Positions 13,936-54,458 of a stretch of DNA of 64,000 nucleotides are shown here, one piece after another. Numbering within the stretch: position 1 is the first letter of the stretch; the number at the start of each line of letters is the position of its first letter. The translations under genes were made by a program, and so were the position numbers. The stretch is from contig JAJEFD010000018.1 in NCBI GenBank assembly GCA_022820645.1, positions 95,252 through 159,251 on the forward strand, in the 5' to 3' direction. The notes beneath the pieces are model-generated. The model searched no databases, was not told the DNA's origin, and saw only the letters and a list, made by a program, of their open reading frames with translations. This stretch comes from Dehalococcoidia bacterium. Lineage in GTDB: Bacteria > Chloroflexota > Dehalococcoidia > Lucifugimonadales > Australimonadaceae.

Positions 13936-14026
13936 TGTCCGCCTCCTGTCGCCCGGATGCGCGCATTATACGTCCGCTGCCGTTGCCGTGGTGCGCTACA
14001 ATCCCGGCGCAGCAGGAGGTGGCAGG

Positions 14027-16979: not shown

Positions 16980-17130
16980 GCCTCCCCCTTTTCGTCGTAC
17001 TGCGCGTTGGGCGCAGTATACGCGCCCGCGCTCCGTGTCGTAGGGGATGTGTGACACGAGGGCATTGCGATGTACAGCCCTGCCTCCCCTAGAGTAGGCA
17101 TGGCCCGACAGAGGGCAGGAGGTAGACGAG

Positions 17131-17517
17131 ATGGCAGTTGCGAACCCGAACATCAACCCGCTGGCGGAGCTGGGAGCGTTCCTCCCCGGCGACGCGCTGG
17201 AGAGGCTGGCCGTGCTGCTGGCGGAGCCGGACGCGCGCCATACGTGCGGCCAGCTGGCGCGGCTGGGCGCGGCGTTCAGCAGCGTGGGCGCACGTTTGAC
17301 TGACGCAGCGAGGAACGGGATGCACGAGCGACTCGCCGGAGGGGATGGGCGCGCCTTCGAGTCCGGCGTGCTGTTCCAGTGGCGGAGGCCGCTCGTCGTG
17401 ACGGCGGTGGACACGCAGCGGGTGCGCACCGCTTTCCCACCGACGATGCGGCCTGACCTCTACAAGAAGCGGGAGACGCAGGGAGTGGTAGCCGTCACGG
17501 TGAAAGAGGCGGCTTAG
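17131..17517 (+). CDS. hypothetical protein
   Basis: 128 aa. ATG is preceded by GGCAGGAGG. Strong GC3 bias. I recognise no family. Confidence 0.55.
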   Translation: MAVANPNINPLAELGAFLPGDALERLAVLLAEPDARHTCGQLARLGAAFSSVGARLTDAARNGMHERLAGGDGRAFESGVLFQWRRPLVVTAVDTQRVRTAFPPTMRPDLYKKRETQGVVAVTVKEAA

Positions 17518-25342: not shown

Positions 25343-25410
25343 GACCCATGCCTCCTGCCGCCGCTCGCCGACGGCACGGCTACGATAGCACGAAACCGGC
25401 GCGGCGGGCG

Positions 25411-26511: not shown

Positions 26512-26515
26512 CGGC

Positions 26516-28153: not shown

Positions 28154-29043
28154 CGCTCGAGCCCCGCGATGAACGGCGTCCGCATCTGCGCGACGAACCC
28201 CAGCGGGTACTCGCGGTTGTGCAGCCCCAGGATGCCTACCTCGCGGTCCTTCGGGAGGAACCGCGTGCCGAAGAGCACGTCCCAGACGATGAGGTTGTTG
28301 CCGAAGTTGTTGTCCGATTCCACCGTAACCTCCGAGTGGTGCCAGCGGTGCAGTTCCGGCCCGCTGACCAGATAGTTGAGCGGCCCCAGGCGCACGCGGC
28401 AGTTGGAGTGCTGGAAGAAGCCGTTGAGCGCGTAGAAGACGAAGTACGCCGCGAGCACCTCCGGCGGCACGCCGACCAGCGCGAACGGCAGCGTGTCCAC
28501 TGTGTACTGGACCGCTTTCTCGATGGGGTGGAAGCGCCCCACGTTCAGCCAGTAGAGCCGGTGCGGCGAGTGGTGCACCGCGTGCAGGCACCACATCGGC
28601 CTGAACCGGTGGAACGCCCTGTGCAGCCAGTACCGCGGGAAGTCCGCCGCCGCGATCATCAGCACGACCTGAGCCGCGATGGGGAGGCCGTGCGGCCACA
28701 GCCCCTCGACGGCCAGCCCGCGGGCGTCGAACAGGTCGGCCAGCGCGACTACGACCGTCACCGAGAACAGCAGCGGCAGCACCGCCTGCACCGCGGCGAG
28801 GAACATCGCATCGGCGCGGACGTCGCTCCCGGTCGGATGCCACTCTCTGCGGTACGGCAGCCGCGCCTCGTGCAGCGTCACGAGCGCCGCGCCGGTGATG
28901 ACCGCGACCCACGACGCAGCCGTGACCTGCCAGCCGAGTCCCACGAGCGCCGCGTAGACCGCGAACCCGATCGCCAGCACACCGGGGTACGAGCCCACGA
29001 CGACGATGCGGGCGAGCGCCGTGTTCGCGTTCGCGTTGGTCAC
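28150..29043 (-). CDS. fatty acid hydroxylase / sterol desaturase superfamily membrane protein
   Basis: 297 aa from a GTG overlapping the upstream stop (GTGA). Several TM helices and three His boxes: HRAFH, HAVHH, HRWHH. Confidence 0.85.
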   Translation of the reverse strand: MTNANANTALARIVVVGSYPGVLAIGFAVYAALVGLGWQVTAASWVAVITGAALVTLHEARLPYRREWHPTGSDVRADAMFLAAVQAVLPLLFSVTVVVALADLFDARGLAVEGLWPHGLPIAAQVVLMIAAADFPRYWLHRAFHRFRPMWCLHAVHHSPHRLYWLNVGRFHPIEKAVQYTVDTLPFALVGVPPEVLAAYFVFYALNGFFQHSNCRVRLGPLNYLVSGPELHRWHHSEVTVESDNNFGNNLIVWDVLFGTRFLPKDREVGILGLHNREYPLGFVAQMRTPFIAGLER

Positions 29044-29510
29044 GCCGCGCCCCCGGCGTCCCTGCCCGCGCTGTAGACGTAGTGCCCGAAGAGCAGCACG
29101 AACGCCGCGAGCACGAGGTGGAAGAGCGCAGGGAGGCTCTCCGCGAACCAACCGACGTCCGAGAGGAACGTGAGCCCCGCTGCGAGCCGGAACGCCATCG
29201 CCGCGAAGTACGCCCCGCCGAGGACGAAGCACGCGCGGTGCTTCCACGTCGCAGGAGTGATCGACCGCGAGCGCACCATCACGAGCGCCCGCGCCAGCAG
29301 CGCGACGATGAGCACCTGCGAGGCGAGCAGCGCGGGGTATGGCAGCCCCGAGCCCTGCCAGGTGTCGAACGATGGGAGAAACGGCACCGGGCCCGCCCAC
29401 TGCACCGCCTGCGCCAGCACGCGCAGTACGAACAGCGCCGCGAGCGCGAGCATCCACGGGAGATAGCGCTGGTGGAGAGGGGCGGTGTCGTTCATCGTTC
29501 TGGACAGCAC
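29040..29510 (-). CDS. hypothetical 4-TM membrane protein
   Basis: 156 aa. GTG start lies 38 nt downstream of tRNA-Arg. Four hydrophobic helices. I recognise no family. Confidence 0.6.
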   Translation of the reverse strand: MLSRTMNDTAPLHQRYLPWMLALAALFVLRVLAQAVQWAGPVPFLPSFDTWQGSGLPYPALLASQVLIVALLARALVMVRSRSITPATWKHRACFVLGGAYFAAMAFRLAAGLTFLSDVGWFAESLPALFHLVLAAFVLLFGHYVYSAGRDAGGAA

Positions 29511-29548: not shown

Positions 29549-29626
29549 TGGCGCGCTAGGCGGGACTCGAACCCACGGCCTCATCCTCCGCAGGGATGCG
29601 CTCTATCCTGACTGAGCTACTAGCGC
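29549..29626 (-). tRNA. tRNA-Arg, anticodon GCG by manual folding
   Basis: Cloverleaf: acceptor GCGCTAG/CTAGCGC, D arm GCTC-AGTCAGGATA-GAGC (A20 present), anticodon stem CATCC/GGATG with loop CTGCGGA, T arm GTGGG-TTCGAGT-CCCGC, and an encoded CCA. Confidence 0.85.
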
Positions 29627-29674
29627 ACTCTCAAGGTGCCACCGGTTGCGGGGCCGGAGGCGTCATATGCTTAG

Positions 29675-29760
29675 TGGTGCCGAGGGCGAGATTTGAACTC
29701 GCACGCCCGTAAGGACACTGCGCCCTGAACACAGCGCGTCTGCCGTTCCGCCACCTCGGC
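29675..29760 (-). tRNA. tRNA-Leu (CAG)
   Basis: Acceptor GCCGAGG/CCTCGGC, anticodon stem CTGTG/CGCAG with loop TTCAGGG, long variable arm, T loop TTCAAAT, encoded CCA. 86 nt. Confidence 0.9.
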
Positions 29761-29772
29761 ACGTCCACACAG

Positions 29773-29849
29773 TGGTGGGCGATACAGGACTTGAACCTGT
29801 GACCTCTTGCGTGTGAAGCAAGCGCTCTAACCAACTGAGCTAACCGCCC
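29773..29849 (-). tRNA. tRNA-Val (CAC)
   Basis: Acceptor GGGCGGT/ATCGCCC, D arm GCTC-AGTTGGTTA-GAGC, anticodon stem CTTGC/GCAAG with loop TTCACAC, encoded CCA. 77 nt. Confidence 0.9.
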
Positions 29850-29931: not shown

Positions 29932-30798
29932 ATGGCGAACCCGAGAGCCGACTTCGTTCCCCTGCCCGACAGGCCGGCGCTGCACCTGCCGCGGGGCGCC
30001 CGCGTCGCCGTCATCCTCGTGATGAACGTCGAGCAGAACGAGTTCGACCACCACGTCGGACGCCCCCTCAGCCCGCAGCCTCCGGGACGCGAGCGCCTGC
30101 CGGACGTGCCCAACTTCTCGTGGTTCGAGTACGGCCTCCGCGCCGGCTTCTGGCGGGTGCTCAACGCCTGCCGCAGCCACCACGTGCCGATGACGATAGC
30201 GCTCAATGGCTCGGTCTGCGACGCCTACCCGCAGGTCGCCCGCGCCGCCTTCGACGCCGGATGGGACGCCGTCGCCCACGGCTACCACCAGCGTCCGATG
30301 CCCGCCGTGGACGATGAGGCAGCCGAGATCAAGCGCGCTCTCGACGCCATCGAGGCGTTCAGCGGCACGCGGCCCCTCGGTTGGCTCGGCCCTGGACTCG
30401 GCGAGACCGACGCCACGCCGGAGCTGCTCGTCGACGCGGGCGTCGAGTTCGTTCTCGACTGGGTCAACGACGATCAGCCGTACGAGTTGAACGTCGCCAG
30501 CGGCAGGCTCTTCTCCGTCCCCTACTCGCTCGAACTGAACGACATCGGCGTCTACATCCGGCTCGGCCACCCGGGGCCGTCGATGCTGGAGCGCGTCCAC
30601 GACCACCTCACGACGCTCCTCAACGACGAGCCGGAGACCGCGCGCGTGATGTCCATCGGCCTGCACCCGTTCATCGTTGGCCAGCCGCACCGCTTCCCCT
30701 ACTTCGTGAAGATGCTGGAGCTCATCATGAACACCCCCGGCGCGATACCGATGACCGCCACCGAGGTCTACCGCTGGTACCGCGAACAGACGGGCTAG
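29932..30798 (+). CDS. polysaccharide deacetylase (NodB-homology) family protein
   Basis: 288 aa. General resemblance to divergent deacetylase/PuuE-like proteins (WFEYGLRAGFWR, HGYHQ). The family call comes from memory of the pattern. Confidence 0.6.
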   Translation: MANPRADFVPLPDRPALHLPRGARVAVILVMNVEQNEFDHHVGRPLSPQPPGRERLPDVPNFSWFEYGLRAGFWRVLNACRSHHVPMTIALNGSVCDAYPQVARAAFDAGWDAVAHGYHQRPMPAVDDEAAEIKRALDAIEAFSGTRPLGWLGPGLGETDATPELLVDAGVEFVLDWVNDDQPYELNVASGRLFSVPYSLELNDIGVYIRLGHPGPSMLERVHDHLTTLLNDEPETARVMSIGLHPFIVGQPHRFPYFVKMLELIMNTPGAIPMTATEVYRWYREQTG

Positions 30799-30804
30799 CC
30801 CGCC

Positions 30805-30867
30805 GTTCCTGCGAAGGCAGGAACCTCGCAGCCCTACTCCGTCATGCCGGCGAAGGCTGGCATCCAG
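30805..30867. repeat. two GC-rich tetraloop hairpin repeats (REP-like)
   Basis: GTTCCTGC-GAAG-GCAGGAAC (30805-30824) and GTCATGCCGGC-GAAG-GCTGGCATCCAG (30841-30867). The second recurs at 33597-33623. Confidence 0.7.
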
Positions 30868-31190
30868 GGTCCCCGACGGGGCACGCGGAGAGCCGTCGTG
30901 TCCTGCGGTGTCCTCCCTGTGCCACTCCTCCCTGTTCCCGCACAGGCGTGGACCGCGCAGCCGCAATCGCTCTAACTGTGCCATTGTGGGCCATTGTGAG
31001 CCATTCCACTCCTGCGACCCTGCCCTCGTGCCGGGGCAGGCCCACCGGCGGCGCAGCGCCGTCACCAACCAACGTACGTGGTCAGGGGGCGGTGGGGAAG
31101 GGGCGCGTGTCACATTGACACCCCTACTTCTCACTAGTAGCGTCCAGCCACCATCTGTTGTACGGCCTTCATAGGGCAAGTGGCAGATGC

Positions 31191-31262
31191 GGGCCCGTGG
31201 TGTAATGGGAGCCACACCACATTGCGAATGTGGAGGTGCGGGTTCGAGTCCCGTCGGGTCCA
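31191..31262 (+). tRNA. tRNA with anticodon GCG (Arg by anticodon); no encoded CCA
   Basis: Acceptor GGGCCCG/CGGGTCC (one G-U pair), anticodon stem CCACA/TGTGG with loop TTGCGAA, T arm GCGGG-TTCGAGT-CCCGT, 4-nt variable loop, discriminator A. The D stem is imperfect. Confidence 0.7.
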
Positions 31263-31314
31263 GTGGTGATGCTTCGAATAGGGTGAGATATGCTCAGCCC
31301 TAATCTAGTAACCC

Positions 31315-31608
31315 CTAGACTGCGGTACCGCCTTGTGCATCAGCTATGTCTTGTGCATCCGATACATTGCTCGTGCCTACACAAGTCTTCTTTCTGTCAC
31401 ACAAGTCGTATGCAGCCTGATACTCCCACTCTGTCTTGCAGAGAATACCTTCATGGAATAAGCACTTCAGCGCCTTTTCCACTTGAGTTCTACTTATATC
31501 TACTGTTACGAACGCATACTTAGGCAGAGGGTGCAGTGAACTACATAGTAACTGAATAATGTGATTTTTCTCTCGTTCTAGTTCCTCGCAGTTCAGTTCC
31601 TCTACCAT
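31315..31608 (-). CDS. hypothetical small protein, possibly winged-helix DNA-binding
   Basis: 97 aa. ATG is preceded by GAAGGAGG. It lies in a visibly AT-richer stretch. The segment DISRTQVEKALKCLFHEGIL looks like a wHTH recognition helix, which is a weak call. Confidence 0.55.
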   Translation of the reverse strand: MVEELNCEELEREKNHIIQLLCSSLHPLPKYAFVTVDISRTQVEKALKCLFHEGILCKTEWEYQAAYDLCDRKKTCVGTSNVSDAQDIADAQGGTAV

Positions 31609-31647
31609 CTCGGCCTCCTTCTAAGTTTAGCGTTCTGCCCTCCCTAA

Positions 31648-31709
31648 CCCCGTCAACCCCCAACCTCGACCCGCCCGACAGTGAAGCGCTCGCCGTCAGG
31701 TGGTGGATG
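31648..31709. repeat. copy A of an imperfect ~60-bp direct repeat (degenerate duplicate of the RCC1-like gene 3' end)
   Basis: Aligns with 32060-32120 at an offset of 412 nt, including the stop codon. It encodes ...PPDGERFTVGRVEVGG* versus ...PPEGERFAVGRVEVGS*. Confidence 0.8.
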
Positions 31710-31729
31710 AACAGACAGATGGTCCATGC

Positions 31730-31987
31730 TTAGGTCTCCTTGATACCTGCGTACAGACAGGTTGAGCATCTGAAAATCTCGACATGCGTGTCTCCAACGG
31801 TTACAAGCGAATGCAATGTTGCCTTCTGGCAGTTCACGCATCTGAGTCCCATGCCGGATCCTGGATGTACCGGATCCCCAACGCGCCATCCTATAAAGCC
31901 GCAACTCGAGCACCTGCTGAACGACCCTGTCTCTTCAACGTGAAGCGTCTGGGTCCAACAGGCCGGACACTTTCTGCCCATCGCCAT
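31730..31987 (-). CDS. tandem zinc-ribbon small protein
   Basis: Track ORF is 31730..32068. AAGGAG is followed by three in-frame ATGs (31993, 31987, 31981), and I chose the middle one. Four CxxC pairs: CPAC, CSSC, CVNC, CSTC. Confidence 0.6.
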   Translation of the reverse strand: MAMGRKCPACWTQTLHVEETGSFSRCSSCGFIGWRVGDPVHPGSGMGLRCVNCQKATLHSLVTVGDTHVEIFRCSTCLYAGIKET

Positions 31988-32059
31988 GGCCATCTCCTTG
32001 GCACGCAAAATTACTCTGTTCCGCCGCGCACGAGCGGCAACCCTACCGACCCCTCCCCA

Positions 32060-32120
32060 CCCCGTCAACTCCCGACCTCGACCCGCCCGACGGCGAAGCG
32101 CTCGCCCTCAGGCGGTGATG
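32060..32120. repeat. copy B of the ~60-bp direct repeat (authentic 3' end of the RCC1-like gene)
   Basis: See copy A. The two copies bracket the zinc-ribbon gene. Confidence 0.8.
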
Positions 32121-33504
32121 CTTGGCTAAAACTATCGTCGCCCCAGCAGACTGCCGTACCGTTAGGTCGGAGTGCACAGGCATGCTCCTGGCCGCTACTG
32201 ATCGATGAGAAATGCTCGGCCTCCGGCGGCGTCGCTTGACCCCTACTGTTCAAACCCGCGCAAACGGCGCTCCCATCTGACCGTAACGCGCAAGTGTATG
32301 CCGCGCCGGTACTAATCGAAATGAACCGCTCGTCATCCAGCGGTGATTGATCTCTCCCCCAACATACAGCGCTACCATCCTGGCGTAACCCACACGTGCG
32401 TCTGACGCCGCTACTGATAGACACGAAACGTTCGGTCTCCGGTGGTGACGCTTGGCCATACTCGTTCCAGCCCCAGCAAACAACGCTCTCATCAGGCCGT
32501 AGGCCGCATGTGTGTCCGCTGCCACTACTCACAGATACGAAGCGATCACCTTCTGGCGGCGATGACTGACCGTCTTGGTTCTTCCCCCAGCAAGCAGCCC
32601 TGCCATCGGACCGCAGGGCACATGTATGCGCCGTACCGCTACTGATTGACACAAACTGCTCTTGCTCCAAGGGCGACGCTTGGCCGTGCTCGTTCCAGCC
32701 CCAGCAAACGACGCTCCCATCAGGCCGCAGGCCGCATGTGTGTCCGCCGCCACTACTCACAGATACGAAACTCTCATCTTCCGGTGGCGATGTGCCTCCA
32801 TTGCGATTGTCTCCCCAGCACACAGGGCTACCATCCAGACGTAGCGCACATGTGTGATGGCCACCACTGCTGAGCGTCGTATGCTGCTCTGGCGCACGGA
32901 AGTTTTCCGGTACGGGGTATGGCGTGGCCGTGGGGGTCGGTGTATCCGTGGGCACCGGCGTAGGAGGCGGCTTAAGCGTCCACCAGCCGCAGGCATCGGA
33001 CGCGCGGAACCCCGCGTCGGTCGGCAGGATGGCGACGGTCGGGGGAGCGGTCGTCGAGTCCTGGAACAGCACGACCTCGCCTCCGGCGTCGAGCCTGCTG
33101 AGCCGCGCCCACTCGCACGTTCCCGATACCTCCGGGGCCTCGTAGACGCCGGGGATGATCTGCTCACCGACAAGCCACGAGCCCGGCGGGAACGCGGTCC
33201 ACGGGAAGGGGGCAGGAGTTGGGGTCGGTGTGGCAGTGGGCGTTGGCGTCGGAGTGGGAGTAGGTGTCGGAGAAGGCGTAGGAGTTGGAGTGGGCGTTGG
33301 TGTAAGGGTTGGCGTAGGAGTCGCAGTGGGAGTTGGGGTTACTGTAGGAGTTGGCGTCGGCGTGGGGATGGGCGTGGCGGTTGGGGGGAGCGTGGGCGTG
33401 GGGCGGGCGGCAGACTCCACGATGCCGACCGTCGGCGGGGCGGAGTCGCACGCCGCGAACGCGAGCGCAAGGAGCATCAGGGCGAGGAGCGCAGGCGTTC
33501 GCAA
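32065..33504 (-). CDS. RCC1-repeat (seven-bladed propeller-type) lipoprotein with Pro/Thr linker
   Basis: 479 aa. TTG start follows GGAGA. Lipobox LALAFAAC and a roughly 65-aa PT-rich linker. Seven repeats of about 37 aa of the type F-[VI]S[VI]SSG-x-HTCGLR-x-DGS-VVCWG-x-N-x-GQ-SPP. Confidence 0.85.
   Translation of the reverse strand: MRTPALLALMLLALAFAACDSAPPTVGIVESAARPTPTLPPTATPIPTPTPTPTVTPTPTATPTPTLTPTPTPTPTPSPTPTPTPTPTPTATPTPTPAPFPWTAFPPGSWLVGEQIIPGVYEAPEVSGTCEWARLSRLDAGGEVVLFQDSTTAPPTVAILPTDAGFRASDACGWWTLKPPPTPVPTDTPTPTATPYPVPENFRAPEQHTTLSSGGHHTCALRLDGSPVCWGDNRNGGTSPPEDESFVSVSSGGGHTCGLRPDGSVVCWGWNEHGQASPLEQEQFVSISSGTAHTCALRSDGRAACWGKNQDGQSSPPEGDRFVSVSSGSGHTCGLRPDESVVCWGWNEYGQASPPETERFVSISSGVRRTCGLRQDGSAVCWGRDQSPLDDERFISISTGAAYTCALRSDGSAVCAGLNSRGQATPPEAEHFSSISSGQEHACALRPNGTAVCWGDDSFSQASPPEGERFAVGRVEVGS
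32095..32883. repeat. tandem ~111-114-bp coding repeats (RCC1 blades) with a ~230-bp higher-order periodicity
   Basis: Stretches around 32466-32565 and 32696-32795 are near-identical at the DNA level. There are seven units overall. Confidence 0.8.
33211..33402. repeat. low-complexity hexanucleotide-type repeat encoding a (Pro-Thr)n linker
   Basis: Encodes TPTPTPTPTVTPTPTATPTPTLTPTPTPTPTPSPTPTPTPTPTPTATPTPTP. Confidence 0.85.
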
Positions 33505-34538: not shown

Positions 34539-35825
34539 GTGACGACGCAGCCGCCCTCCAGCCAGGCTCCGACGCCCGCATCTGCCGCGGGCGCCTCTCC
34601 GCAGCGCCTCCTGCGGCTGCTCTTCCAGCTCCACCTGCCCGCGATCGCGCTCGGCTTCGGCATGGGGGCGACGGTCCCCGTCCTGCCGGAGTTCGCCCTG
34701 TCGTTCGGCGTCGGGCCGGAGCAGGCCGCCCTCGTGTTCGCGGCGACCATGCTCGGCGGGCTCACCGCCAGCATCCCCATCGGCTACCTGCTCGACAAGA
34801 TCGGACGGCGGTGGATCCTCATCCTGGGCCCGGCGCTCACCGCCCTCTCCGCCTTCCTCACCGCCTGGGCGGGCTCCTTCGAGGCGCTGCTCGTCTACCG
34901 CTTCATCGGCGGATGGGGCACACAGATGTGGACGCTCAGCCGGCTCACCATGATCGCGGACACGAGCGCATCCGGCTCACGCGGGCGCATGATCACGAGC
35001 CTCCTCGGCGTACAGCACGTCGGCACGCTGGCAGGGCCGCTGGCGGGCGGGCTGCTGGCCGTGACGTACGGCCTCGAGGTCGCGTTCATCATCCAGGGCG
35101 CGTTCGCGGTCGTCGCCATGGTCCCCGGTTTCTTCGCCAGGGAGACGATGCCGCAGGGCGGACGCACCGGAGGCCGGGGCGCGGCGTCCTCCCCCACGGA
35201 GAGCTTCTCGTGGAAGGCGCTCCTCGCTCATCCGATACCGGTCATGTTCCTTGCCCAGTGGCTCGGCATGACGGCGCGCGGCGGCATCGTGGCGGGCAAC
35301 ACCGTGTTCCTCTACGCCGCCTACGCCTACCAGGAAGCCGACCCCGCGACGCTCGGCATCCTCAGCAGCCTGATGGCGGGCGCGGGGATACCGCTCACCT
35401 TCGCGGCCGGGTACCTGATGGACCGCTTCGGGCGGAAGATATCCATCGTGCCCGGCCTCTTCCTGCTGGGCGCCGGGATGGCCTTCCTGGGGGTAACGTC
35501 GTTCTTCGGGCTGGGGTTCGGCTGGTTCATCGTCGGGTTCGTCGTCATGCAGACGATGAACAGCCTGCTCACCGGCTCGTGGCAGGTCGTCGGCTCCGAC
35601 CTCGCGCCTCCCGGCGGCAGGGGACGGTTCTTCGCGGTGGGGCGCACGGTCACGCAGGCGGGCTTCACGACCAACCCCGTGGCCGTTTCGGTCTGCACGG
35701 CCATCTCCGGCTTCACCCTGGCGCTGGGAGTCGTCGGCGCGGCGGGGATGCTCTCATCGCTCATCCTCGCCCTGTTCGTGCCCGAGACCCACAGCAGGTC
35801 ACGTTCCAGTGGAGGACGGGGATAG
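34539..35825 (+). CDS. MFS transporter
   Basis: 428 aa, about 12 TM helices, motifs LDKIGRRW and MDRFGRK. Confidence 0.85.
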   Translation: MTTQPPSSQAPTPASAAGASPQRLLRLLFQLHLPAIALGFGMGATVPVLPEFALSFGVGPEQAALVFAATMLGGLTASIPIGYLLDKIGRRWILILGPALTALSAFLTAWAGSFEALLVYRFIGGWGTQMWTLSRLTMIADTSASGSRGRMITSLLGVQHVGTLAGPLAGGLLAVTYGLEVAFIIQGAFAVVAMVPGFFARETMPQGGRTGGRGAASSPTESFSWKALLAHPIPVMFLAQWLGMTARGGIVAGNTVFLYAAYAYQEADPATLGILSSLMAGAGIPLTFAAGYLMDRFGRKISIVPGLFLLGAGMAFLGVTSFFGLGFGWFIVGFVVMQTMNSLLTGSWQVVGSDLAPPGGRGRFFAVGRTVTQAGFTTNPVAVSVCTAISGFTLALGVVGAAGMLSSLILALFVPETHSRSRSSGGRG

Positions 35826-35919
35826 GGGCCGTCTGCCCCGTCCGCGCTTGAACGGCACGCGGAAACAGGAGTACAGTAACCGCACGCAGACAGTACGCAC
35901 GCACGGGAGAGGTGCAACG

Positions 35920-37092
35920 ATGCTCACGCAGCAAGAGAACGACCTGATCACGAGAGTCGGTCCGGGCACGCCGGCGGGTGAACTGCTCCGGCGCTACTGG
36001 CACCCCATCGCCATCGCGTCCGACCTCACGGACGAGCGCCCGACGAAGGCTGTCCGTGTCCTCGGCGAAGACCTCGTCCTCTTCAAGGACAAGTCCGGGC
36101 GCATCGGCCTGCTCGCCGACCACTGCGCGCACCGCAGCGCCTCGCTGGTCTACGGGCGCGTCGAGGAGCGGGGCATCTCCTGCGCCTACCACGGCTGGCT
36201 GTACGACTGCGACGGCAACATCTTGGAGACGCCGCCGGAGAAGAACGAAGCGATCATGCGCTCCGTGAGGCAGACCGCCTACAAGGTGCAGGTGCACATC
36301 GGCCTCGTCTTCGCCTACATGGGCCCCGACCCCGCGCCCCCGATGGCGCCTTACGACACGATGTTCCGCAAGGACGGCAAGCGCATGGTGCGCATCCACC
36401 CGCCGCTCAACTGCAACTGGTTCCAAGCGATGGAGAACTCGATGGACCCGGCCCACCTCCAGGTGCTGCACCAGGAGTTCACCGGCGGCGGGCGTCAGCC
36501 TGTCAACACGACACGCGGCTTCACCGACGACGTGGAGCACTTCGAGTTCTACGTGACCGACTACGGCGGGATGATGAAGAAGCGCACCTACAAGAACGGG
36601 ATGGTGGACGAGCACCCCGTCCTCATGCCGAACATCCTGCGCCAGGGCTCCAGCACCCAGTTCCGCACGCCCATCGACGACACGCACACCTGGCACCTCC
36701 GCATGCACTTCTACCCGAACGAGGACGGCAGCGAGGACCCGGACACGTTCAACCCCGAGTTCAAGTTCGACCCGCCCATCAAGGAAGACCCGGAGAAGGA
36801 CCACCCCTTCACGCGGTTCATCCTGCGCGACGTGAACGCGCAGGACCAGATGGCGTGGGAGACGCAGGGCCCCATCACCGACCGCACCATCGAGCACCTT
36901 TCGTACTCGGACCGGGGCGTCGTGCTGCTGCGGCGTGTGATGAAGGAGCAGATCGAGCGCGTGCAGCGCGGCGAGGACCCCATCGGCGTCTTCCGCGACC
37001 CCAACCACCCGCTCATCGACACGAACGTCGACGAGGGCATCGCGCAGATCGGCGCCAACCGCTCGCCGGACGCGCAGGTGGTCGCCCGCTAA
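35920..37092 (+). CDS. Rieske [2Fe-2S] non-heme-iron oxygenase (paralogue 3)
   Basis: ATG at 35920 follows GGGAGAGG. The N-terminus MLTQQENDLITRVGPGTPAGELLRRYWHPIA is nearly colinear with paralogue 1. Rieske motif CAHRSASLVYG...ISCAYHGW and iron motif NSMDPAHLQVLH. Confidence 0.88.
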   Translation: MLTQQENDLITRVGPGTPAGELLRRYWHPIAIASDLTDERPTKAVRVLGEDLVLFKDKSGRIGLLADHCAHRSASLVYGRVEERGISCAYHGWLYDCDGNILETPPEKNEAIMRSVRQTAYKVQVHIGLVFAYMGPDPAPPMAPYDTMFRKDGKRMVRIHPPLNCNWFQAMENSMDPAHLQVLHQEFTGGGRQPVNTTRGFTDDVEHFEFYVTDYGGMMKKRTYKNGMVDEHPVLMPNILRQGSSTQFRTPIDDTHTWHLRMHFYPNEDGSEDPDTFNPEFKFDPPIKEDPEKDHPFTRFILRDVNAQDQMAWETQGPITDRTIEHLSYSDRGVVLLRRVMKEQIERVQRGEDPIGVFRDPNHPLIDTNVDEGIAQIGANRSPDAQVVAR

Positions 37093-43245: not shown

Positions 43246-43326
43246 GAGTCCCGACCCGGTTCCCCGCTTGACAGCAGGACCGTCAGGATGATTAGCTAAG
43301 CTTAGTCCGACCAAGGAGCGTTCGGC

Positions 43327-43593
43327 ATGCAGGTCAACATGCACGAAGCCAAATCCCAACTCTCGCGCCTCGGCGAACTCGCCTGCCAGGGCGAACGCGT
43401 CGTCATCGCCAAGGCCGGCAAGCCGTACCTGGAACTGCTCCCCTACAAGGAGAAGGAGCGCGAGCCACGCAAACTGGGCATCTTGAAAGAGCAGGGCTGG
43501 CCTGAGCCGAACTGGAACCTACTCGAGTGGACAAACGAGGAGATCGAAGATCTGTTCTACAGCGACGACCCTGACGATCCGCTTTTCCAATGA
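43327..43593 (+). CDS. Phd/YefM-type antitoxin
   Basis: 88 aa. MQVNMHEAKSQLSRL...VVIAKAGKP is typical of the family. ATGA overlap with the downstream PIN gene. Confidence 0.8.
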   Translation: MQVNMHEAKSQLSRLGELACQGERVVIAKAGKPYLELLPYKEKEREPRKLGILKEQGWPEPNWNLLEWTNEEIEDLFYSDDPDDPLFQ

Positions 43594-43973
43594 GACTGCT
43601 GCTCGATTCGCACGTCCTGCTCTGGTTCCTGTGGCAGAGCCCACTGCTTGGAACGCGTGCCGCTGTTGCTATCGCTGACCCTGGCAACGAGGTCTTCGTA
43701 AGCGCTGCAAGCATCTGGGAACTCGCGCTGAAGCGGGCCAAGGCTCTGCTGGATGCCCCGGAAAACCTGTCCAGTGTGGTGGAACAAGCCGGCTTCATGC
43801 CTCTTCCGTTGACGCTATTCCACGCGGAGCAGGCGGCGATGCTGCCGATGCACCACCGCGACCCGTTCGACCGGATGCTGATCGCGCAGGCGCAAGCGGA
43901 GGGGCTGGTCCTCGTCACGAGGGACGCATACATCCGGCGCTACGGCATACGCACGATGGCGCCGGACCAGTAG
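43590..43973 (+). CDS. vapC: PIN-domain toxin (VapC family)
   Basis: 127 aa. LLDSHVLLW, SAASIWE and HRDPFDRMLIAQA acidic PIN residues. Confidence 0.85.
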   Translation: MRLLLDSHVLLWFLWQSPLLGTRAAVAIADPGNEVFVSAASIWELALKRAKALLDAPENLSSVVEQAGFMPLPLTLFHAEQAAMLPMHHRDPFDRMLIAQAQAEGLVLVTRDAYIRRYGIRTMAPDQ

Positions 43974-43980
43974 CGCCGCG

Positions 43981-44985
43981 CTACATCTCCCAGTAGGCGA
44001 AGCCCATGCCGCACGGGGACGCGAAGACCGGCACGTAGTCGATCACGACGCCCGGTTTGCCATCCGCGACGCCCGCCGCGGCGACCCAGTTGCGCGACTC
44101 GCCCGTACCGCTCCCGATGCCCGTGTACATGCCGGTGCCCCCATCGACCCAGCGGGCCGTCTTCGGGCCGTAGTCCGCGGGTGGCGTCGCGCCTTCCCTG
44201 TCGAACTCGTCCGCCATCCCCTTGCCGTCACCCTTCGGGATGTAGGAGAGAAGGCGCTCGTCGAACTCCGTGTTGAGCCACGAGGTGGGGCTGCCCGGCG
44301 TGTGCCACAGCCCGCCGGAACCGAGGACGGCCACGCGCAGGTCCAGCGGCGACGCCTCGATGACCTCGCGCACCGCCCTGCCGAGCCGGTAGCAGCGGTT
44401 GGCCGACGGCTGCGGGCCGAAGTAGCAGTTCACGAAGAACGGGATCATCGGGACGTCGAAATCGGGGATGATGCGGGTGAAGGGGCGCATGAACGCATGG
44501 CCCATGCCATGCTCCTTGTTCGGCACCTTGAAGCTGAACGAGATGTCGAAGTCGCGGTGCGTGAGCCCGACCGCCAGCTCCTGCGCGAGTTGCGGGTTGC
44601 TCTGCACCGTCACCCACGTCTCGGGCGTCTTCTCGCGCCAGCCCCGCTGCTCGCCGGGGATGAAGCCCGTCCGGGCGCTCGTGCGGTAGCCCTCGAACTC
44701 GTCGCCGACGAAGATGCCGAAGGCAGGGAAGTTGTCCAGCCCGAAGAGCTCCTGCTGGTCGTCGCCGAAGACGAGGACCACGTCAGGCTTCGCCTCTTCC
44801 ATCTTCTGCCGCAACACCTCGAACGCGTCCATGCAGCGCCTGTACTGCGCGGCGTTGTCCTCCTCGGACATGACCGGGTTATCGGGCAGCGGCGGACGGG
44901 CGGCCCGCACCTGGTTCCACTGGTGCGGCTCCATGAAGAGGAAGGGGGAGTGCGAGCAGGCCTCGACGAGTACGATCTCTGCCAT
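43981..44985 (-). CDS. LigB-family extradiol dioxygenase-like protein (paralogue 2)
   Basis: 334 aa. ATG follows AAGGAGG. Colinear with 15993..16979 (for example DVVLVFGDDQQELF versus DVLVIFSDDQLECF, and GSGGLWHTPG). Confidence 0.8.
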   Translation of the reverse strand: MAEIVLVEACSHSPFLFMEPHQWNQVRAARPPLPDNPVMSEEDNAAQYRRCMDAFEVLRQKMEEAKPDVVLVFGDDQQELFGLDNFPAFGIFVGDEFEGYRTSARTGFIPGEQRGWREKTPETWVTVQSNPQLAQELAVGLTHRDFDISFSFKVPNKEHGMGHAFMRPFTRIIPDFDVPMIPFFVNCYFGPQPSANRCYRLGRAVREVIEASPLDLRVAVLGSGGLWHTPGSPTSWLNTEFDERLLSYIPKGDGKGMADEFDREGATPPADYGPKTARWVDGGTGMYTGIGSGTGESRNWVAAAGVADGKPGVVIDYVPVFASPCGMGFAYWEM

Positions 44986-49812: not shown

Positions 49813-52092
49813 TCAGGAGCACTCCATCGCGGCGCGGAGGCTCTTCAGGTTGTCGCGCATCAGGCCGAGGTAGTCGCCGTGCTCGTCCAGTTCAGCCTGG
49901 GTAACGCTCTCTATCGAGTGGATCTTGTAGATGCCGGCCCCTGTCTCGCTGGCGAGCGACCGTTCGTTCTCACCGGAGAGCACGGGCTCGAGCAGCACTG
50001 CCGTGATGCCGAGTTCCTTGATGCGGTCGGCGATGCTCGCGAGGCGCTGCGGGGACGGCTCTGCTTCCGGGGAGAGGCCGGCGATCCCCACTTGTTCCAG
50101 GTCGTAGGCCAGCGCCAGATAGCCGTATGCAGAGTGAGACGTGACGAACTCGCGGTGGGCGCACGAGCTGAGGCCCGCCTCGAACTCGGCGTGCAGCGCC
50201 CGGAGATCTGCCGCGAGCGCGGCCAGGTTCGTCCGGTAGGTGTCCGCGCCATCGGGGTCCGCCTCGATCAGCGCTTCGGCGATGCGTTCCGCCTGGGTGA
50301 TGGCGCGCAGCGGGTCCAGCCAGAAGTGCGGGTCGAACTCCCCATGTCCGTGGTCGTCCTCTTCCCCGTGTCCATGGTCGTCCTCGTCCTCGTGGCCATG
50401 CTCGTCCTCGTGACCGGCTGCGGGGGCGTCGGACCCCTCCATGATGCCGACGAAGGCGATACCGGTCGGCGAACCGCCGACGTCCCAGACCTCCTCCACC
50501 TCGAGGTGTTCGAGATCGAGGGAGATGACCTCGCCGTGTTCGGGGTTCGTGAGGAACATCGTCTCGCCGACGATGATGAGACGGGGCCGGCCCTCACCCG
50601 GTTCCATGACGTGGATGTGCGTGATCTCGTCGCCGTCGTGGGCGTCGAGCACGTGCAGTTCGCCTTCGGCGGTCAGCAGGTAGAGGCGCTCGCCGTGCGC
50701 GCCGACACCACCGGACGCGATGGGCTCGGCGAACACCTGCCGGAACTCGCCCGACTCCGGATCGATCAGCCAGATGCCGTCGTCGGCGAAGCCCTGCCCG
50801 TCGAAGTAGGAGGCGCGACCGAAGAAGTGGTGCAGGTCGTGGTGCCCGAAGAAAGAGCCGATGCGCGAGTCCTCACGCATGCCGGGCGGGTTGTCGATGA
50901 ACTCGTGGCGGTAGCTGCCGCCGTCCGGGTACAGGAAGAGCACGCCGCCAACGCAGCCGAAGATGGCCCCTTCTTCGTTGTGGGTCTCGCCGTGCATGCC
51001 GGGGCAGGAGCCGTTGCTGGCGTCATAGACGACCTCGTCGTCGAAGGTACGGACCTCAACACCGACGGGGAGGGTGCTTTCCGTTTTCTCGGGATAGTCG
51101 GGGTTTACGGTGGTCACAACGATGTGGTCGGGCGAGATCGCCAGGGCAGCGCCGTGCTGCGTGTCGCCGGTCTCGAACAAGATCGGCTGGTAGTCGCCCT
51201 GTGTGCCGGTGATCTCCTCCTCGTTGTAGAAGTAGGCGTGGCCGTGAGCGTCAGCGAACACTGCCGTCCAGCCGTAGGTGTTGACGAAGTGGATCGGCCG
51301 TTCATCCGTCACCACAGAGGGGTGGCGCGAGACGGGCTCACGTACGAGGTCGAAGTGGTCGCCGTGCTCGACGAGGTAGACGCCGCCGTCGAAGAGGTGG
51401 ATGCCGTCATCGGCGTCTCCCGGGCCGCGGGCGAGGACGAAGGCGTAGCGGTGGGTTGGGCTGGGGTATATGGCGGCCGGCGGGGCACCGATGTCGAAGG
51501 CGCCGGCGTCGAGTTCCTCTGTTGAGAGATCGAGAACCGAGAGGTGCTGCGCCTCGAGGTCCGCGATGAGCAGGCGCCCGTCGAAGGATGCCTCTTCTCC
51601 GTGGCCGTGCTCGCCCTCTTCCGCTTCCATGTGCCCGTGCTCGTCCTCGTGGCCGTGACCGTCTTCTTCGAACGGCAGTGCCCCCTCGGCTGCTGCAGCC
51701 TCGACCACGATACCGGAGAGGTCGTTGCCCAGGGACTCGAGCGCGCGCTCCAGCCAGGGCAACAGGCTGAGGCCGTTTATCGCTACGACGTCGGCCTCGG
51801 CGATCGTGAGGAGGTCACTCGCCGTGAGTTCGAACGAGTGGGCCTCGACGCCGGGGTGCACGATGGTCTCGACGTTCACGCGGTCGCCGCCGATGCGCTT
51901 GGCGAAGTACTGCATGGGGTAGATGCTCGCCACCACGCTCAGCGGCTCGGAGGCCACCTCGGTGGGAGTAGCCGTTGCGACGGCTGGAACAGACGTCGCG
52001 GTGGGCTCGGGATCCTCCGAGCAAGCGACGACCGCCATCGCCATGAGCGCGGCGATGAACAACAGACGCGAACTAATGAGATGAAGTCTCAT
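49813..52092 (-). CDS. ZnuA/TroA-family metal-binding lipoprotein with a ~390-aa propeller-like domain inserted in the His-rich loop
   Basis: ATG at 52092 follows GGAGG (track ORF begins at 52110). Lipobox MAMAVVAC. SBP N-lobe (VVASIYPMQYFAKRIGGD...GVEAHSFE) and C-lobe (DPHFWLDP, FVTSHSAYGYLA, ITAVLLEP). Between the lobes are two His/Asp/Glu tracts flanking residues ~175-562 (nt ~50425-51588). Confidence 0.85.
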   Translation of the reverse strand: MRLHLISSRLLFIAALMAMAVVACSEDPEPTATSVPAVATATPTEVASEPLSVVASIYPMQYFAKRIGGDRVNVETIVHPGVEAHSFELTASDLLTIAEADVVAINGLSLLPWLERALESLGNDLSGIVVEAAAAEGALPFEEDGHGHEDEHGHMEAEEGEHGHGEEASFDGRLLIADLEAQHLSVLDLSTEELDAGAFDIGAPPAAIYPSPTHRYAFVLARGPGDADDGIHLFDGGVYLVEHGDHFDLVREPVSRHPSVVTDERPIHFVNTYGWTAVFADAHGHAYFYNEEEITGTQGDYQPILFETGDTQHGAALAISPDHIVVTTVNPDYPEKTESTLPVGVEVRTFDDEVVYDASNGSCPGMHGETHNEEGAIFGCVGGVLFLYPDGGSYRHEFIDNPPGMREDSRIGSFFGHHDLHHFFGRASYFDGQGFADDGIWLIDPESGEFRQVFAEPIASGGVGAHGERLYLLTAEGELHVLDAHDGDEITHIHVMEPGEGRPRLIIVGETMFLTNPEHGEVISLDLEHLEVEEVWDVGGSPTGIAFVGIMEGSDAPAAGHEDEHGHEDEDDHGHGEEDDHGHGEFDPHFWLDPLRAITQAERIAEALIEADPDGADTYRTNLAALAADLRALHAEFEAGLSSCAHREFVTSHSAYGYLALAYDLEQVGIAGLSPEAEPSPQRLASIADRIKELGITAVLLEPVLSGENERSLASETGAGIYKIHSIESVTQAELDEHGDYLGLMRDNLKSLRAAMECS

Positions 52093-52125
52093 ACGTGGTA
52101 CCTCCAGCAACTATCCGTTGGGGTT

Positions 52126-52626
52126 TCAATGTGAATGCACGCGGGCCCTGTGCACGTGGATGTCTCCGCCGCCCTGATCGCTCTCCCGGCAGACAGCGCA
52201 GCGGTGGTACAGCTCCAGCCGGTGCCCGACGAGTTCGCCCTCCACGTGGGACCTCATGGCGCGGAGCATCCGTTCGATGGAAGGATGGCGGAACTCCTCG
52301 ATGCGTTCGCAGACGACACAGACGAGGTGATGGTGGTGGTGTGCCTCGTCCAGCGAGTAGCGCGGCGAACCATCCGGCATGGTGGTCTTGCAGAGGACAC
52401 CCGCCTCCCCGAGCAGGCGCAGGGTGCGGTAGACGGTCGCCCGGCCCAGGGTCGGCAACGCGGCTACGATCTCCTCGGCGCTGAACGAGTCATTCCGCCG
52501 AGCGAGCATCCTCGCCAGTTGACGGCGCGGCCAGGTCATGCGGCTGCCATGCTCCTCCAACGCCGCAAGGATGTTGGACTCGGTCTGCATGACCGCGCTG
52601 GCCGATTTCGTCGAGGCCGTCGCCAT
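52126..52626 (-). CDS. zur: Fur-family metalloregulator (Zur-like)
   Basis: 166 aa. wHTH (GRATVYRTLRLLGEAGVL), a HHHHH run, and CVVCERIEE ... CAVC structural-zinc pairs. It sits directly upstream of the ZnuA-type gene. The Zur assignment is by context only. Confidence 0.8.
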   Translation of the reverse strand: MATASTKSASAVMQTESNILAALEEHGSRMTWPRRQLARMLARRNDSFSAEEIVAALPTLGRATVYRTLRLLGEAGVLCKTTMPDGSPRYSLDEAHHHHHLVCVVCERIEEFRHPSIERMLRAMRSHVEGELVGHRLELYHRCAVCRESDQGGGDIHVHRARVHSH

Positions 52627-52633
52627 GACTCAG

Positions 52634-52672
52634 ACGGTAGCGATGCCTTTGCACACTGTCAATACTTAGTAT
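52634..52672 (-). promoter_or_regulatory. candidate promoter (TTGACA-17-TACCGT) giving a near-leaderless zur mRNA, with an adjacent AT-rich 5-1-5 palindrome
   Basis: On the minus strand: TTGACA (52662-52657), a 17-nt spacer, TACCGT (52639-52634), then 7 nt to the ATG at 52626. There is no SD. The palindrome ATACTtAGTAT (52662-52672) abuts the -35 element. Confidence 0.3.
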
Positions 52673-52724
52673 CAATAATGACCAGGAATGATACCACTGC
52701 CTGTCGTTCCGCAGGCGAAGGGTA

Positions 52725-53747
52725 TCAGGCGGGTTTGCGGGCGTGCACGAAGTACATGGGGGTGAAGATGCCGAGCTTGCCTGCCTCCACCATGGCCGCT
52801 GCGCAGAGTTCCAGCGTACCCGCCACCCGGACCGCTCCCTGCGGCACGATGCGGAGCTTCTCGAGCACCCTCAGCGAGTTGGCGGTGACCAGACGCCCGA
52901 CCTTCGAGCTGCGGAAGCTGGCGAAGGAGACCCCGGAACCAGACAGCGGTTGATACCACGGGACCGACGGGCCGGTCTGCACGGCAAGGTCCCGCGTCTC
53001 CAGCACCTCGAACCCGACCGACCGGAGCGCGTCGTCAACCGTCGGGCGGTCGTCGATCACGAGCAGGCCGCCTCCCAGTTGGATGTCGGCCTTGAGCTTG
53101 AGGTGGACGGGGTCCTGAGGGTCGAAACGGTCGGTCATGCAGTATTCGTACGCAGCGAAGCACGCTCCCGGCTTGAGCAGACGAAAGATCTCGCCATAGA
53201 TGCCGGGCTTGTCCGGCGCACAGCAGGTCGCCTCGATGGAGTAGACGGCGTCGAACGAGTCGTCCGGAGCATCGACGTGCAAGAAGTCGCAGTGGAGGAA
53301 CCCAGCCAGGTGGGCCAGCCCCGCCTCCTCCACGTATCTCCGCGCGCGGTCGACCTGGTAGCCGTTGCTGTTCACGCCAACGATCCGGGCGCCGGAGAAG
53401 CGGGCGATCTCCATCATCGGCCCGCCGACACCGCAACCGATGTCGGCGGCGACCATGCCGGGCCTGAGTTCGAGCTTGTGCGCCACGTAGTGCTCGTGAC
53501 GTGCGAGCGACGCCTTGAAGCTCTCTCCGGGGACGCGCGGCGCAAAGTGGAAGGACCTGCCCCACCCGTACTCGTAGAAGTCCGAAACCAGGTCGTAGTA
53601 GAGGTTGTTGAAGGTCTTGTAGCCGGCCTCATCATCCTCCGAACTGCGCCTCGTTGTCTTGAATCGCTCTTCGTATTCACCGACGGCCGCATCAGCATCG
53701 GAGGCGATCTCTTTGTCCTTCAGCAGGCTGGAGAGACGGAATGGCAT
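52725..53747 (-). CDS. sterol 24-C-methyltransferase (ERG6/SMT1-like) homologue
   Basis: 340 aa, colinear with eukaryotic SMTs. NNLYYDLVSDFYEYGWGRSFHF (SMT region I), DIGCGVGGP (SAM motif), YSIEATCCAP (region II), YEYCMTD (region III), and a C-terminal sterol-MT domain (VPWYQPL ... FTPMYFVHARKP). Confidence 0.88.
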   Translation of the reverse strand: MPFRLSSLLKDKEIASDADAAVGEYEERFKTTRRSSEDDEAGYKTFNNLYYDLVSDFYEYGWGRSFHFAPRVPGESFKASLARHEHYVAHKLELRPGMVAADIGCGVGGPMMEIARFSGARIVGVNSNGYQVDRARRYVEEAGLAHLAGFLHCDFLHVDAPDDSFDAVYSIEATCCAPDKPGIYGEIFRLLKPGACFAAYEYCMTDRFDPQDPVHLKLKADIQLGGGLLVIDDRPTVDDALRSVGFEVLETRDLAVQTGPSVPWYQPLSGSGVSFASFRSSKVGRLVTANSLRVLEKLRIVPQGAVRVAGTLELCAAAMVEAGKLGIFTPMYFVHARKPA

Positions 53748-53776
53748 CGAAGCGCTCCCGGTCTGTTTCCGGTGGG

Positions 53777-54349
53777 TCAGGCGACGGGGGTGGTTTCGGG
53801 CTCGGGGGTGGGTTTGATGAGGTCGACGAGTTCAATGTCGAAGTTGAGCGCCTCGCCGGCGAGCGGGTGGTTGGCATCGAGGGTGATGGCGGTGTCGGTG
53901 ATGTTGGTGATGATCGGCTGCATCCCGTTGGAGAGCGGGATGGCCATGCCGATGGCCAACTGACCCACCATCTCAGGCGGGAACTCCTCGATCGGCACGT
54001 CCACGATGAGGTCGGGGACGATGTCCCCGTACGCTTCGGCGGGTTCCAGGCGCACGGTGACGCTGGCGCCGACAGCGAGACCACGCACGGCATTGTCGAA
54101 GCCGTCGATGAGCTGCCCGCTGCCGACCACGAAGTCGAGCGGGAAGCCGTCGCGTGAGGAGTCGAACTCAGTGCCGTCGTCGAGGGTGCCGGTATAGTGC
54201 ACCATGGCACGGTCACCTTCCTCGGCGACAGGGACAGGCGTGGGAGTTGGGGTTGGGGACGCGCAGGCGACGGCGAGCGCCAGCGCGACGATGAGGAGGG
54301 CGGCCCCCGAGAGGCCGGGGCAGAGTACGTGGGCGATGCGGGGGCTCAT
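53777..54349 (-). CDS. FKBP-type peptidyl-prolyl isomerase lipoprotein (SlyD-like with an IF insert)
   Basis: ATG at 54349 within ORF 53777..54427. Lipobox LALAVAC and a PT linker. VHYTGTLDDGTEFDSS and NHPLAGEALNFDIELV. Confidence 0.82.
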   Translation of the reverse strand: MSPRIAHVLCPGLSGAALLIVALALAVACASPTPTPTPVPVAEEGDRAMVHYTGTLDDGTEFDSSRDGFPLDFVVGSGQLIDGFDNAVRGLAVGASVTVRLEPAEAYGDIVPDLIVDVPIEEFPPEMVGQLAIGMAIPLSNGMQPIITNITDTAITLDANHPLAGEALNFDIELVDLIKPTPEPETTPVA

Positions 54350-54458
54350 GCCCTCACCCCGAGTTTCTCGCGCACAGCCCGCCTCGTGGCCATGTGCCCT
54401 GACTCTGATGACGAAAACCGCGGGCATTACGAAAACAAGGCTGGGGCATCAGCGCGCC

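Follow-up and report, generated by a model that had tools for sequence, protein, structure and literature searches.

Sterol 24-C-methyltransferases (SMTs), for which ERG6 of Saccharomyces cerevisiae and SMT1 of plants (EC 2.1.1.41) serve as eukaryotic references, have described bacterial counterparts. SMT1/ERG6 is enriched in metagenome-assembled genomes (MAGs) of Ircinia symbionts (Kelly et al. 2022, PMC9531527). When metagenomic bacterial SMTs were assayed in vitro, 20 out of 24 methylated desmosterol, those of sponge symbionts were active on it in 8 cases out of 10, and three of the tested bacterial enzymes yielded 24-isopropyl sterols (Brown et al. 2023, Nat Commun 14:1859, PMC10070321). 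Several bacterial SMTs, often sponge-associated, are embedded in gene clusters (Aplysina aerophoba contig JGIcombinedJ30088_10000835, Petrosia ficiformis, Nitrospira and Sandaracinus MAGs), where they adjoin a fused squalene monooxygenase–oxidosqualene cyclase (SMO-OSC), CYP51, ERG24 and sdmA/B. An orphan Chlamydiae SMT (Chl_SMT) comes from a genome in which no further homologues of sterol-synthesis genes occur, and modification of host-acquired sterols was proposed for it (Brown et al. 2023, PMC10070321). The gene described here lies in a 64-kb stretch of DNA of a sponge-associated Dehalococcoidia bacterium, from contig JAJEFD010000018.1, hereafter the window. It belongs to the same enzyme family as the cluster-embedded SMTs, and is likewise bacterial, but, unlike them, has none of their companion genes within 64 kb. 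It is a further example of a bacterial clade published in 2022-2023 and not a discovery, as the kind of gene, the clade and the assay of a close relative are already in the literature.

The best overall explanation, which we hold at a probability of about 0.75, is that this gene encodes a functional cytoplasmic S-adenosylmethionine (SAM)-dependent sterol C-24 methyltransferase of a sponge Dehalococcoidia/Chloroflexota clade, the activity and product spectrum proposed for it being drawn by analogy with characterised SMTs. The gene and its parts are as follows.

52725-53747, minus strand: SMT gene encoding 340 amino acids (aa) from an ATG start, defined by its open reading frame (ORF), Pfam matches and full-length identity to eukaryotic SMTs
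53544-53600, minus strand: Region I, the sterol-binding motif YYDLVSDFYEYGWGRSFHF (aa 50-68), whose S55, Y58 and Y60 are yeast positions 78, 81 and 83
53157-53450, minus strand: class I SAM-methyltransferase core (aa ~100-197), including DIGCGVGGP (Pfam Methyltransf_11/25/31)
53068-53070, minus strand: codon of Gly226, equivalent to yeast position 249 in an alignment anchored on published landmarks
52731-52925, minus strand: sterol methyltransferase C-terminal domain, aa 275-339 (Pfam PF08498)

By family, as judged from its domains and motifs, the protein is an ERG6/SMT1-type sterol 24-C-methyltransferase. The Sterol_MT_C domain (PF08498) is matched at 81 bits (E 6.8e-23) over profile positions 1-65 of 66, far beyond chance given a Pfam gathering cutoff of 21.7 bits, while the competing family CMAS reaches 40.7 bits and UbiE likewise stays far under Sterol_MT_C. 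The motifs follow one another along the protein, namely YYDLVSDFYEYGWGRSFHF in Region I, DIGCGVGGP (aa 102-110), IEATCCAP (aa 171-178), YEYCMTD (aa 200-206), VPWYQPL (aa 262-268) and FTPMYFVHARKP (aa 328-339). The Region I motif Y81-E-Y-G-W-G-x-x-F-H-F91 is present as FYEYGWGRSFHF at aa 57-68, and the SAM loop DxGxGxxGP keeps D125, G127, G129, G132 and P133 (yeast numbering). In BLASTP alignments spanning aa 5-339, identity amounts to 46% with a rice cycloartenol-C-24-methyltransferase 1-like protein (P0156), 43% with Cladosporium ERG6 and 40% with Zancudomyces ERG6. It is 42% with the sequence that we take to be yeast ERG6, which agrees with all 29 landmarks printed in the preprint discussed below. 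The protein is colinear with ERG6 and SMT1 and shares their two-domain architecture and Region I-IV motifs; it differs from them in an N-terminus shorter by ~40 residues, in G249 (D249 in yeast) and A243, and in coming from a bacterial genome in which a sterol pathway was not detected nearby. None of the NCBIfam models reaches its cutoff on this protein, and a PDB sequence search returned no true SMT structure, its top match being MitM over the methyltransferase core only. The earlier note, made from the sequence alone, had described a 340-aa protein colinear with ERG6/SMT1 in bacterial surroundings free of sterol genes. The ORF boundaries prove exact and full-length identity is 40-46%, every sterol-methyltransferase motif that it quoted was located, and Pfam, codon composition, neighbouring genes and translated searches support the identification. 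Grouping with cyclopropane-fatty-acid or tocopherol methyltransferases, which the note had named as a possible refutation, was not observed, as both the CMAS score and the neighbour-joining (NJ) tree indicate.

A word-indexed search returned more than 4,300 homologues, and residue frequencies in the clade are given here for the best 120 of them, which are 70-79% identical and 337-345 aa long. All derive from metagenomes or MAGs, and several are encoded on contigs that measure 1.9-3.8 Mb. Named relatives are Chloroflexota MAG proteins, some labelled 'sterol 24-C-methyltransferase family protein' by NCBI. The clade is thus common in the data searched, both in these 120 homologues and in species-level reference genomes, where a scan of one genome per species gave 68 loci. 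About 50 of these loci are Dehalococcoidia/Chloroflexota at 63-78% identity, and the remainder, at lower identity, belong to Latescibacterota, Binatia, Alphaproteobacteria, Acidobacteria and Polyangiaceae. Two loci (L018 and L023) are Ircinia symbiont MAGs listed in the table of Kelly et al., and a third (L061) is the Aplysina aerophoba SAR202 bin90. Other loci carry isolate tags (APA, RHO, COS) that hint at bins from sponge microbiomes. In an exhaustive search of representatives clustered at 50% identity (413 clusters at E <= 1e-30), the window clade is covered by one full-length representative, all others being at most 52% identical. The NJ tree places the window SMT in a tight clade of sponge Dehalococcoidia/Chloroflexota, followed outward by a sister clade from other sponge-symbiont phyla and then by Polyangiaceae, with ERG6 placed elsewhere. 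Two Latescibacterota SMTs (L032 and L043, 67-70% identical to that of the window) are nested within the Dehalococcoidia/Chloroflexota clade of this tree, which suggests inter-phylum transfer of SMT genes among sponge symbionts.

Twenty-five residues have been listed as common to every functional SMT (Brown & Welander 2025, bioRxiv 10.64898/2025.12.19.695621), and the window SMT keeps 24 of them, including H90, D125, G129, P133 and E195. By analogy with characterised enzymes, Region I would bind a delta-24 sterol, for example desmosterol or 24-methylenecholesterol, while SAM would be held by the DxGxGxxGP loop and its methyl group passed to C-24 and later to C-28. Deprotonation would then yield 24-methyl(ene) and probably 24-ethyl(idene) sterols. 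Chain length is linked to a few positions: G249 is required for C30 products, all four known propylating SMTs carry Phe at 81 and/or 83, and the F83Y mutant of Chl_SMT makes less C30 sterol, 4% from desmosterol and 25% from 24-methylenecholesterol (bioRxiv 10.64898/2025.12.19.695621). Position 249 is Gly in 117 of the 120 clade members, as in the window SMT, and position 81 is Phe in 62 of them; the window SMT has Tyr at both 81 and 83 and so lacks the Phe of the propylating enzymes, sharing its Y81/Y83/G249 state with the Chl_SMT mutant. Since the small Gly249 permits repeated alkylation but Tyr instead of Phe stands at 81 and 83, mainly C28 and C29 products (methylation and ethylation) are predicted, with little or no C30 (24-isopropyl) sterol, and because of Y81 and Y83 the enzyme is not filed as a predicted propylating SMT. 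Its closest variants (P0122 and P0123) have T78 and F81, and the S78/Y81/Y83/G249 state of the window together with these T78/F81 sister alleles forms a natural pair for the published chain-length rules. Chl_SMT, an orphan bacterial SMT with G249 like that of the window, differs in carrying F83, in the 27-50% C30 sterols made by the wild type and in belonging to a different clade.

A close relative on the list of assayed enzymes is found on the A. aerophoba metagenome contig Ga0209021_1000146 (L076 in the JGI scan, gene Ga0209021_100014628; Brown et al. 2023, PMC10070321). Over the full length this SMT shares 73% identity with that of the window, and it belongs to the same tight clade; the contig is 100% DNA-identical over 17 kb to contig MPND01000026.1 of SAR202 bin90. 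Like the window SMT, it stands alone between flanks without sterol genes, and Kelly et al. record no ERG24-CYP51-LSS cluster in the bin90 MAG. The two enzymes share G249, H180, L343, E350 and F362 and differ at the two Region I positions already mentioned, the relative having T78 and F81 where the window SMT has S78 and Y81. Two A. aerophoba SMTs made C30 sterols, and of the propylating SMTs a single one is part of a gene cluster, on contig JGIcombinedJ30088_10000835 (PMC10070321). By indirect reasoning from this wording, the bin90-type enzyme would probably be the other A. aerophoba SMT that propylates.

The SMT gene is a stand-alone unit outside the Zur operon, within a same-strand run of housekeeping genes (argD, argG, argH and rpe). 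Its immediate surroundings, all on the same strand, agree with the FKBP and Zur neighbours given in the earlier note.

53777-54427, minus strand: FKBP-type peptidyl-prolyl isomerase gene (Pfam FKBP_C), which stops 29 nt upstream of the SMT gene
53755-53759, minus strand: Shine-Dalgarno-like GGGAG, 7 nt 5' of the ATG, read from the sequence
52627-52724, minus strand: 98-nt gap between SMT and zur, with a promoter-like TTGACA-17 nt-TACCGT and a palindrome GTATCA-N14-TGATAC at 52669-52694
52126-52626, minus strand: Fur-family (Zur-like) regulator (Pfam FUR), downstream of the SMT gene and with no part in its function
49813-52110, minus strand: ZnuA (Pfam ZnuA), downstream of the SMT gene and with no part in its function

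The SMT gene is probably co-transcribed with the upstream FKBP gene by read-through, whereas zur-znuA would begin as a separate unit at the intergenic gap, whose elements have a predicted role and whose sequence is almost unchanged between strains; the adjacency of SMT and zur thus appears incidental. The order FKBP-SMT-zur was seen in this species only, that is, in the window and in four other assemblies (L001-L004, on contigs that include one of 155 kb and one of 457 kb, the latter being ERZ25068511 ctg60917) with an identical SMT protein and the same neighbours. A conserved SMT neighbourhood was considered and rejected, given that the homologues at 70-79% identity have unrelated neighbours. 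In three other strains, the gene shows 4-6 nucleotide differences, every one of them synonymous, while the flanks have diverged by 2-3%. The gene is therefore under purifying selection.

The gene is bacterial, and eukaryotic contamination is excluded, because the GC content at third codon positions (GC3) is 0.85, against 0.84-0.93 in neighbouring genes, a ribosome-binding site precedes the start, the gene forms part of a same-strand run and its order is repeated in four independent assemblies, one of them on a 457-kb contig. Its codon usage also resembles that of the host, it has no introns, and its nearest relatives sit on closed bacterial chromosomes. Clade members occur on the closed chromosomes OZ220673.1, OZ241923.1, OZ244813.1 and OY761144.1, among others. 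Nothing beyond the family being typical of eukaryotes speaks for a sponge or algal contaminant or a mis-assembly, the chance of which is negligible, and the view of the earlier note that contamination was improbable is borne out. That the gene is a leftover of horizontal transfer, in decay or no longer functional, would fit its orphan state, its varying genomic location and its change at position 78, and not every SMT tested is active, as 4 of the 24 metagenomic enzymes failed on the two substrates offered (Brown et al. 2023, PMC10070321) and 4 of 10 further sponge-metagenome SMTs proved functional (bioRxiv 10.64898/2025.12.19.695621). However, the frame is intact and full-length, the ribosome-binding site is good, the synonymous pattern leaves the gene more conserved than its flanks, and 63-79% identity is kept across ~50 species-level genomes, which makes decay very unlikely. 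Another proposal is a non-sterol isoprenoid as methyl acceptor, for example squalene, a hopanoid or some other triterpenoid. Botryococcus braunii has SMT-like triterpene methyltransferases that act on such compounds, a sterol pathway was detected neither around the gene nor in related MAGs, and position 78 departs from the functional-SMT residue. Yet Region I, E195, G217 and the entire C-terminal sterol-methyltransferase domain are intact, the protein nests in a clade whose members were picked for sterol assays, and the window, by Pfam annotation, contains no hopanoid genes and no squalene genes either, so that a non-sterol substrate is improbable, if less so than decay. Several observations do weigh against a functional SMT. 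T78, one of the 25 functional-SMT residues, is replaced by Ser (S55), a conservative change found in 2 of the 120 clade members, the other 118 having Thr. Two of the ten tested sponge-symbiont SMTs were inactive (Brown et al. 2023, PMC10070321), as was the 59% identical relative LXNI01016685 (L077; bioRxiv 10.64898/2025.12.19.695621), whose sequence shows the Region III proline insertion described by the authors and is therefore correctly matched to the assayed one. In addition, the product spectrum of the bin90-type relative is given only in a figure, not in the text, of Brown et al. 2023.

Across the clade, the SMT gene stands alone in most genomes. Five members (L024, L036, L038, L044 and L063) carry it beside a KshA_C-type Rieske protein, a GPP34-P450 fusion and an HpnN-like RND transporter with a sterol-sensing domain, together with an FAD amine-oxidase-like protein, an MFS transporter and an LppX-like lipoprotein, and a more extensive pathway therefore exists in some relatives. 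A Dadabacteria sponge symbiont has two SMTs with an ERG4/ERG24 reductase, a GPP34-P450, an FAD protein, an RND transporter with a sterol-sensing domain (SSD) and a LolA-like protein. The cyclase-free SMT cluster was located at these positions.

L024, 5420-15198: cyclase-free SMT cluster
L038, 9125-20747: cyclase-free SMT cluster
L063, 10001-20941: cyclase-free SMT cluster
L044, 7408-14540: cyclase-free SMT cluster
L085, 3462-16135: cyclase-free SMT cluster

Such clusters occur in several sponge-symbiont phyla and comprise one or more SMTs, the GPP34-P450 fusion (~675 aa), the KshA_C-type Rieske protein, the FAD amine-oxidase-like protein and the RND transporter with its sterol-sensing domain, some versions adding ERG4/ERG24, LolA-like or LppX-like lipoproteins or an MFS transporter. 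GPP34-P450 fusions have been described as exclusive to sponge symbionts, with a proposed role in phagocytosis, in a paper in which the word 'sterol' is absent (PMC11706023, 2025). Their placement beside SMTs suggests a sterol-modifying role rather than phagocytosis. PDB matches of the P450 of related clusters include CYP51, no better than other P450s.

As to where the substrate comes from, the earlier note had named sterol genes elsewhere in the genome, exogenous sterols and a non-sterol substrate, which are the right set of options to consider. All substantial ORFs of the window were run against Pfam, which found no squalene/isoprenoid synthase, epoxidase, cyclase, CYP51/P450, ERG24 or SdmA/B in the 64 kb. 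A tblastn search of the window with sterol-cluster proteins from related genomes gave only weak Rieske-domain similarity (24-28%), the cyclase query having no match. The two approaches agree with the earlier statement that squalene epoxidase, oxidosqualene cyclase and demethylation genes are missing from the window. A host or environmental sterol is the tentatively favoured substrate, at somewhat less than an even chance. It is preferred to a complete de novo pathway whose other genes are dispersed elsewhere on the chromosome, a serious contender that we consider appreciably less probable than an even chance. Dispersal has precedent, because sterol genes of sponge symbionts are often scattered, ERG24-CYP51-LSS clusters occur in 115 of 537 MAGs and some Dehalococcoidia (order Bin125) carry them (Kelly et al. 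2022, PMC9531527). The Bin125 cluster is divergent, a sister-clade SMT (L048, 62% identical) lies in a cluster-positive MAG, and the five loci with P450, Rieske and RND genes beside the SMT point the same way. Moreover, the cyclase negative is confined to the 64 kb of the window, on a contig that measures 457 kb or more. All of this tempers the case for an exogenous source. On the other side, the table of Kelly et al. gives 'CSG present = No' for three related MAGs that are 90-96% complete (L018, L023 and bin90), and no cyclase lies within 10 kb of the SMT at any sponge-clade locus, the only loci with one nearby being those of soil proteobacteria (L070 and L071). The orphan Chl_SMT is a precedent from the literature. 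A Dehalococcoidia-targeted ERG24 fragment search gave only four short matches, which speak for neither side. With a sponge-symbiont SMO-OSC query translated from Data File S1 of Kelly et al., the best 120 matches were 73-84% identical, and none of the 44 OSC contigs of at least 200 kb among them equals in size any of the 57 SMT contigs of at least 200 kb (34 of them at least 1 Mb), a comparison that is weak because it is confined to these 120 matches and would miss divergent Dehalococcoidia-type clusters. The same best 120 matches (P0338-P0457), fused SMO-OSC proteins of ~1129 aa, are strikingly conserved relative to the alphaproteobacterial query and include Acidimicrobiia among those named, in line with the horizontal spread that Kelly et al. 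describe.

The rest of the window encodes tRNA synthetases, CoA and folate genes, arginine biosynthesis genes, a Cu/Zn superoxide dismutase, transporters, an RCC1-repeat protein and a PIN/Phd pair, as well as three LigXa-type Rieske oxygenases, two LigB-type dioxygenases and one amidohydrolase.

13988-15277: Rieske/LigXa_C paralogue
24053-25912: Rieske/LigXa_C paralogue
35809-37092: Rieske/LigXa_C paralogue
15993-17429: LigB-type ring-cleavage dioxygenase
43981-44985: LigB-type ring-cleavage dioxygenase

Together with the amidohydrolase, these genes look like an aromatic-catabolism set of the Dehalococcoidia/SAR202 type. The oxygenases among them fit the expansions known from SAR202 and from sponge Chloroflexi (PMC6946804). 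The Rieske gene at 24053-25912 had been joined by loose single-linkage clustering to the SMT-adjacent Rieske proteins of the clade, a kinship that was rejected: it is 33-46% identical to distant LigXa-type proteins only, has no direct match to the KshA_C-type cluster proteins and ends in a LigXa_C domain. Nor is it SdmA, the sterol C-4 methyl oxidase, for which the NCBIfam model, with its cutoff of 600 bits, scores 55 bits in a match restricted to the Rieske domain. The fatty-acid hydroxylase gene at 28150-29043 (or to 29457), which the earlier note had singled out as the only other gene with a sterol flavour, does exist (Pfam FA_hydroxylase, 102.7 bits), but its link to sterols did not hold. 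As a sterol desaturase it was rejected, since its sole NCBIfam match is OlsE (164 bits against a cutoff of 475) and it adjoins GH3-family and MR/MLE genes. It resembles the ornithine-lipid hydroxylase OlsE and therefore gives no evidence of sterol metabolism.

This OlsE-like gene is adjacent on the minus strand to genes of the MR/MLE enolase superfamily and of the GH3 family (acyl-acid amido synthetase-like), the three spanning 25411-29457. GH3-family proteins are probably uncommon in bacteria, and the trio is a possible gene set for lipid or amino-acid conjugate modification. A patch of lower GC content at ~30000-33500 (58-62%, against 67% for the window) contains the RCC1-repeat gene at 32065-33504 on the minus strand, which encodes seven repeats ('eukaryote-like protein'). 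A short way upstream come a tRNA cluster (29549-29849) and a second tRNA-Arg(GCG), at 31191-31262; the patch may be an acquired island. The PIN/Phd toxin-antitoxin pair at 43252-43978 (PIN at 43590-43973, Phd/YefM at 43327-43593) is shared with one of the matching assemblies (L001) and precisely missing from two others (L002 and L003), which are otherwise 97-98% identical, and is therefore a strain-variable insertion. The ZnuA homologue at 49813-52110 on the minus strand is unusually long, at 765 aa, with long His/Asp/Glu-rich runs and a large middle region without a Pfam match, its best Pfam ZnuA match covering only aa 571-761 in two stretches.

C-24 alkylated steranes, and especially 24-isopropylcholestane, are used as biomarkers of eukaryotes and sponges in Precambrian rocks. 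It has already been argued that bacterial SMTs weaken this inference (Brown et al. 2023, PMC10070321), and the window, as a well-assembled example from a large sponge-symbiont SMT clade, leaves the current picture unchanged. That the SMT of this clade is usually an orphan under purifying selection sharpens the question of whether such bacteria modify host sterols or synthesise their own. It is conceivable, though rather doubtful, that cyclase-free sponge-symbiont Dehalococcoidia/Chloroflexota alkylate the sterols of their sponge hosts with a stand-alone, strongly conserved SMT. If so, part of the unusual 24-alkyl (possibly 24-isopropyl) sterols of demosponges, and hence of the steranes derived from them, would be a joint product of host and symbiont.

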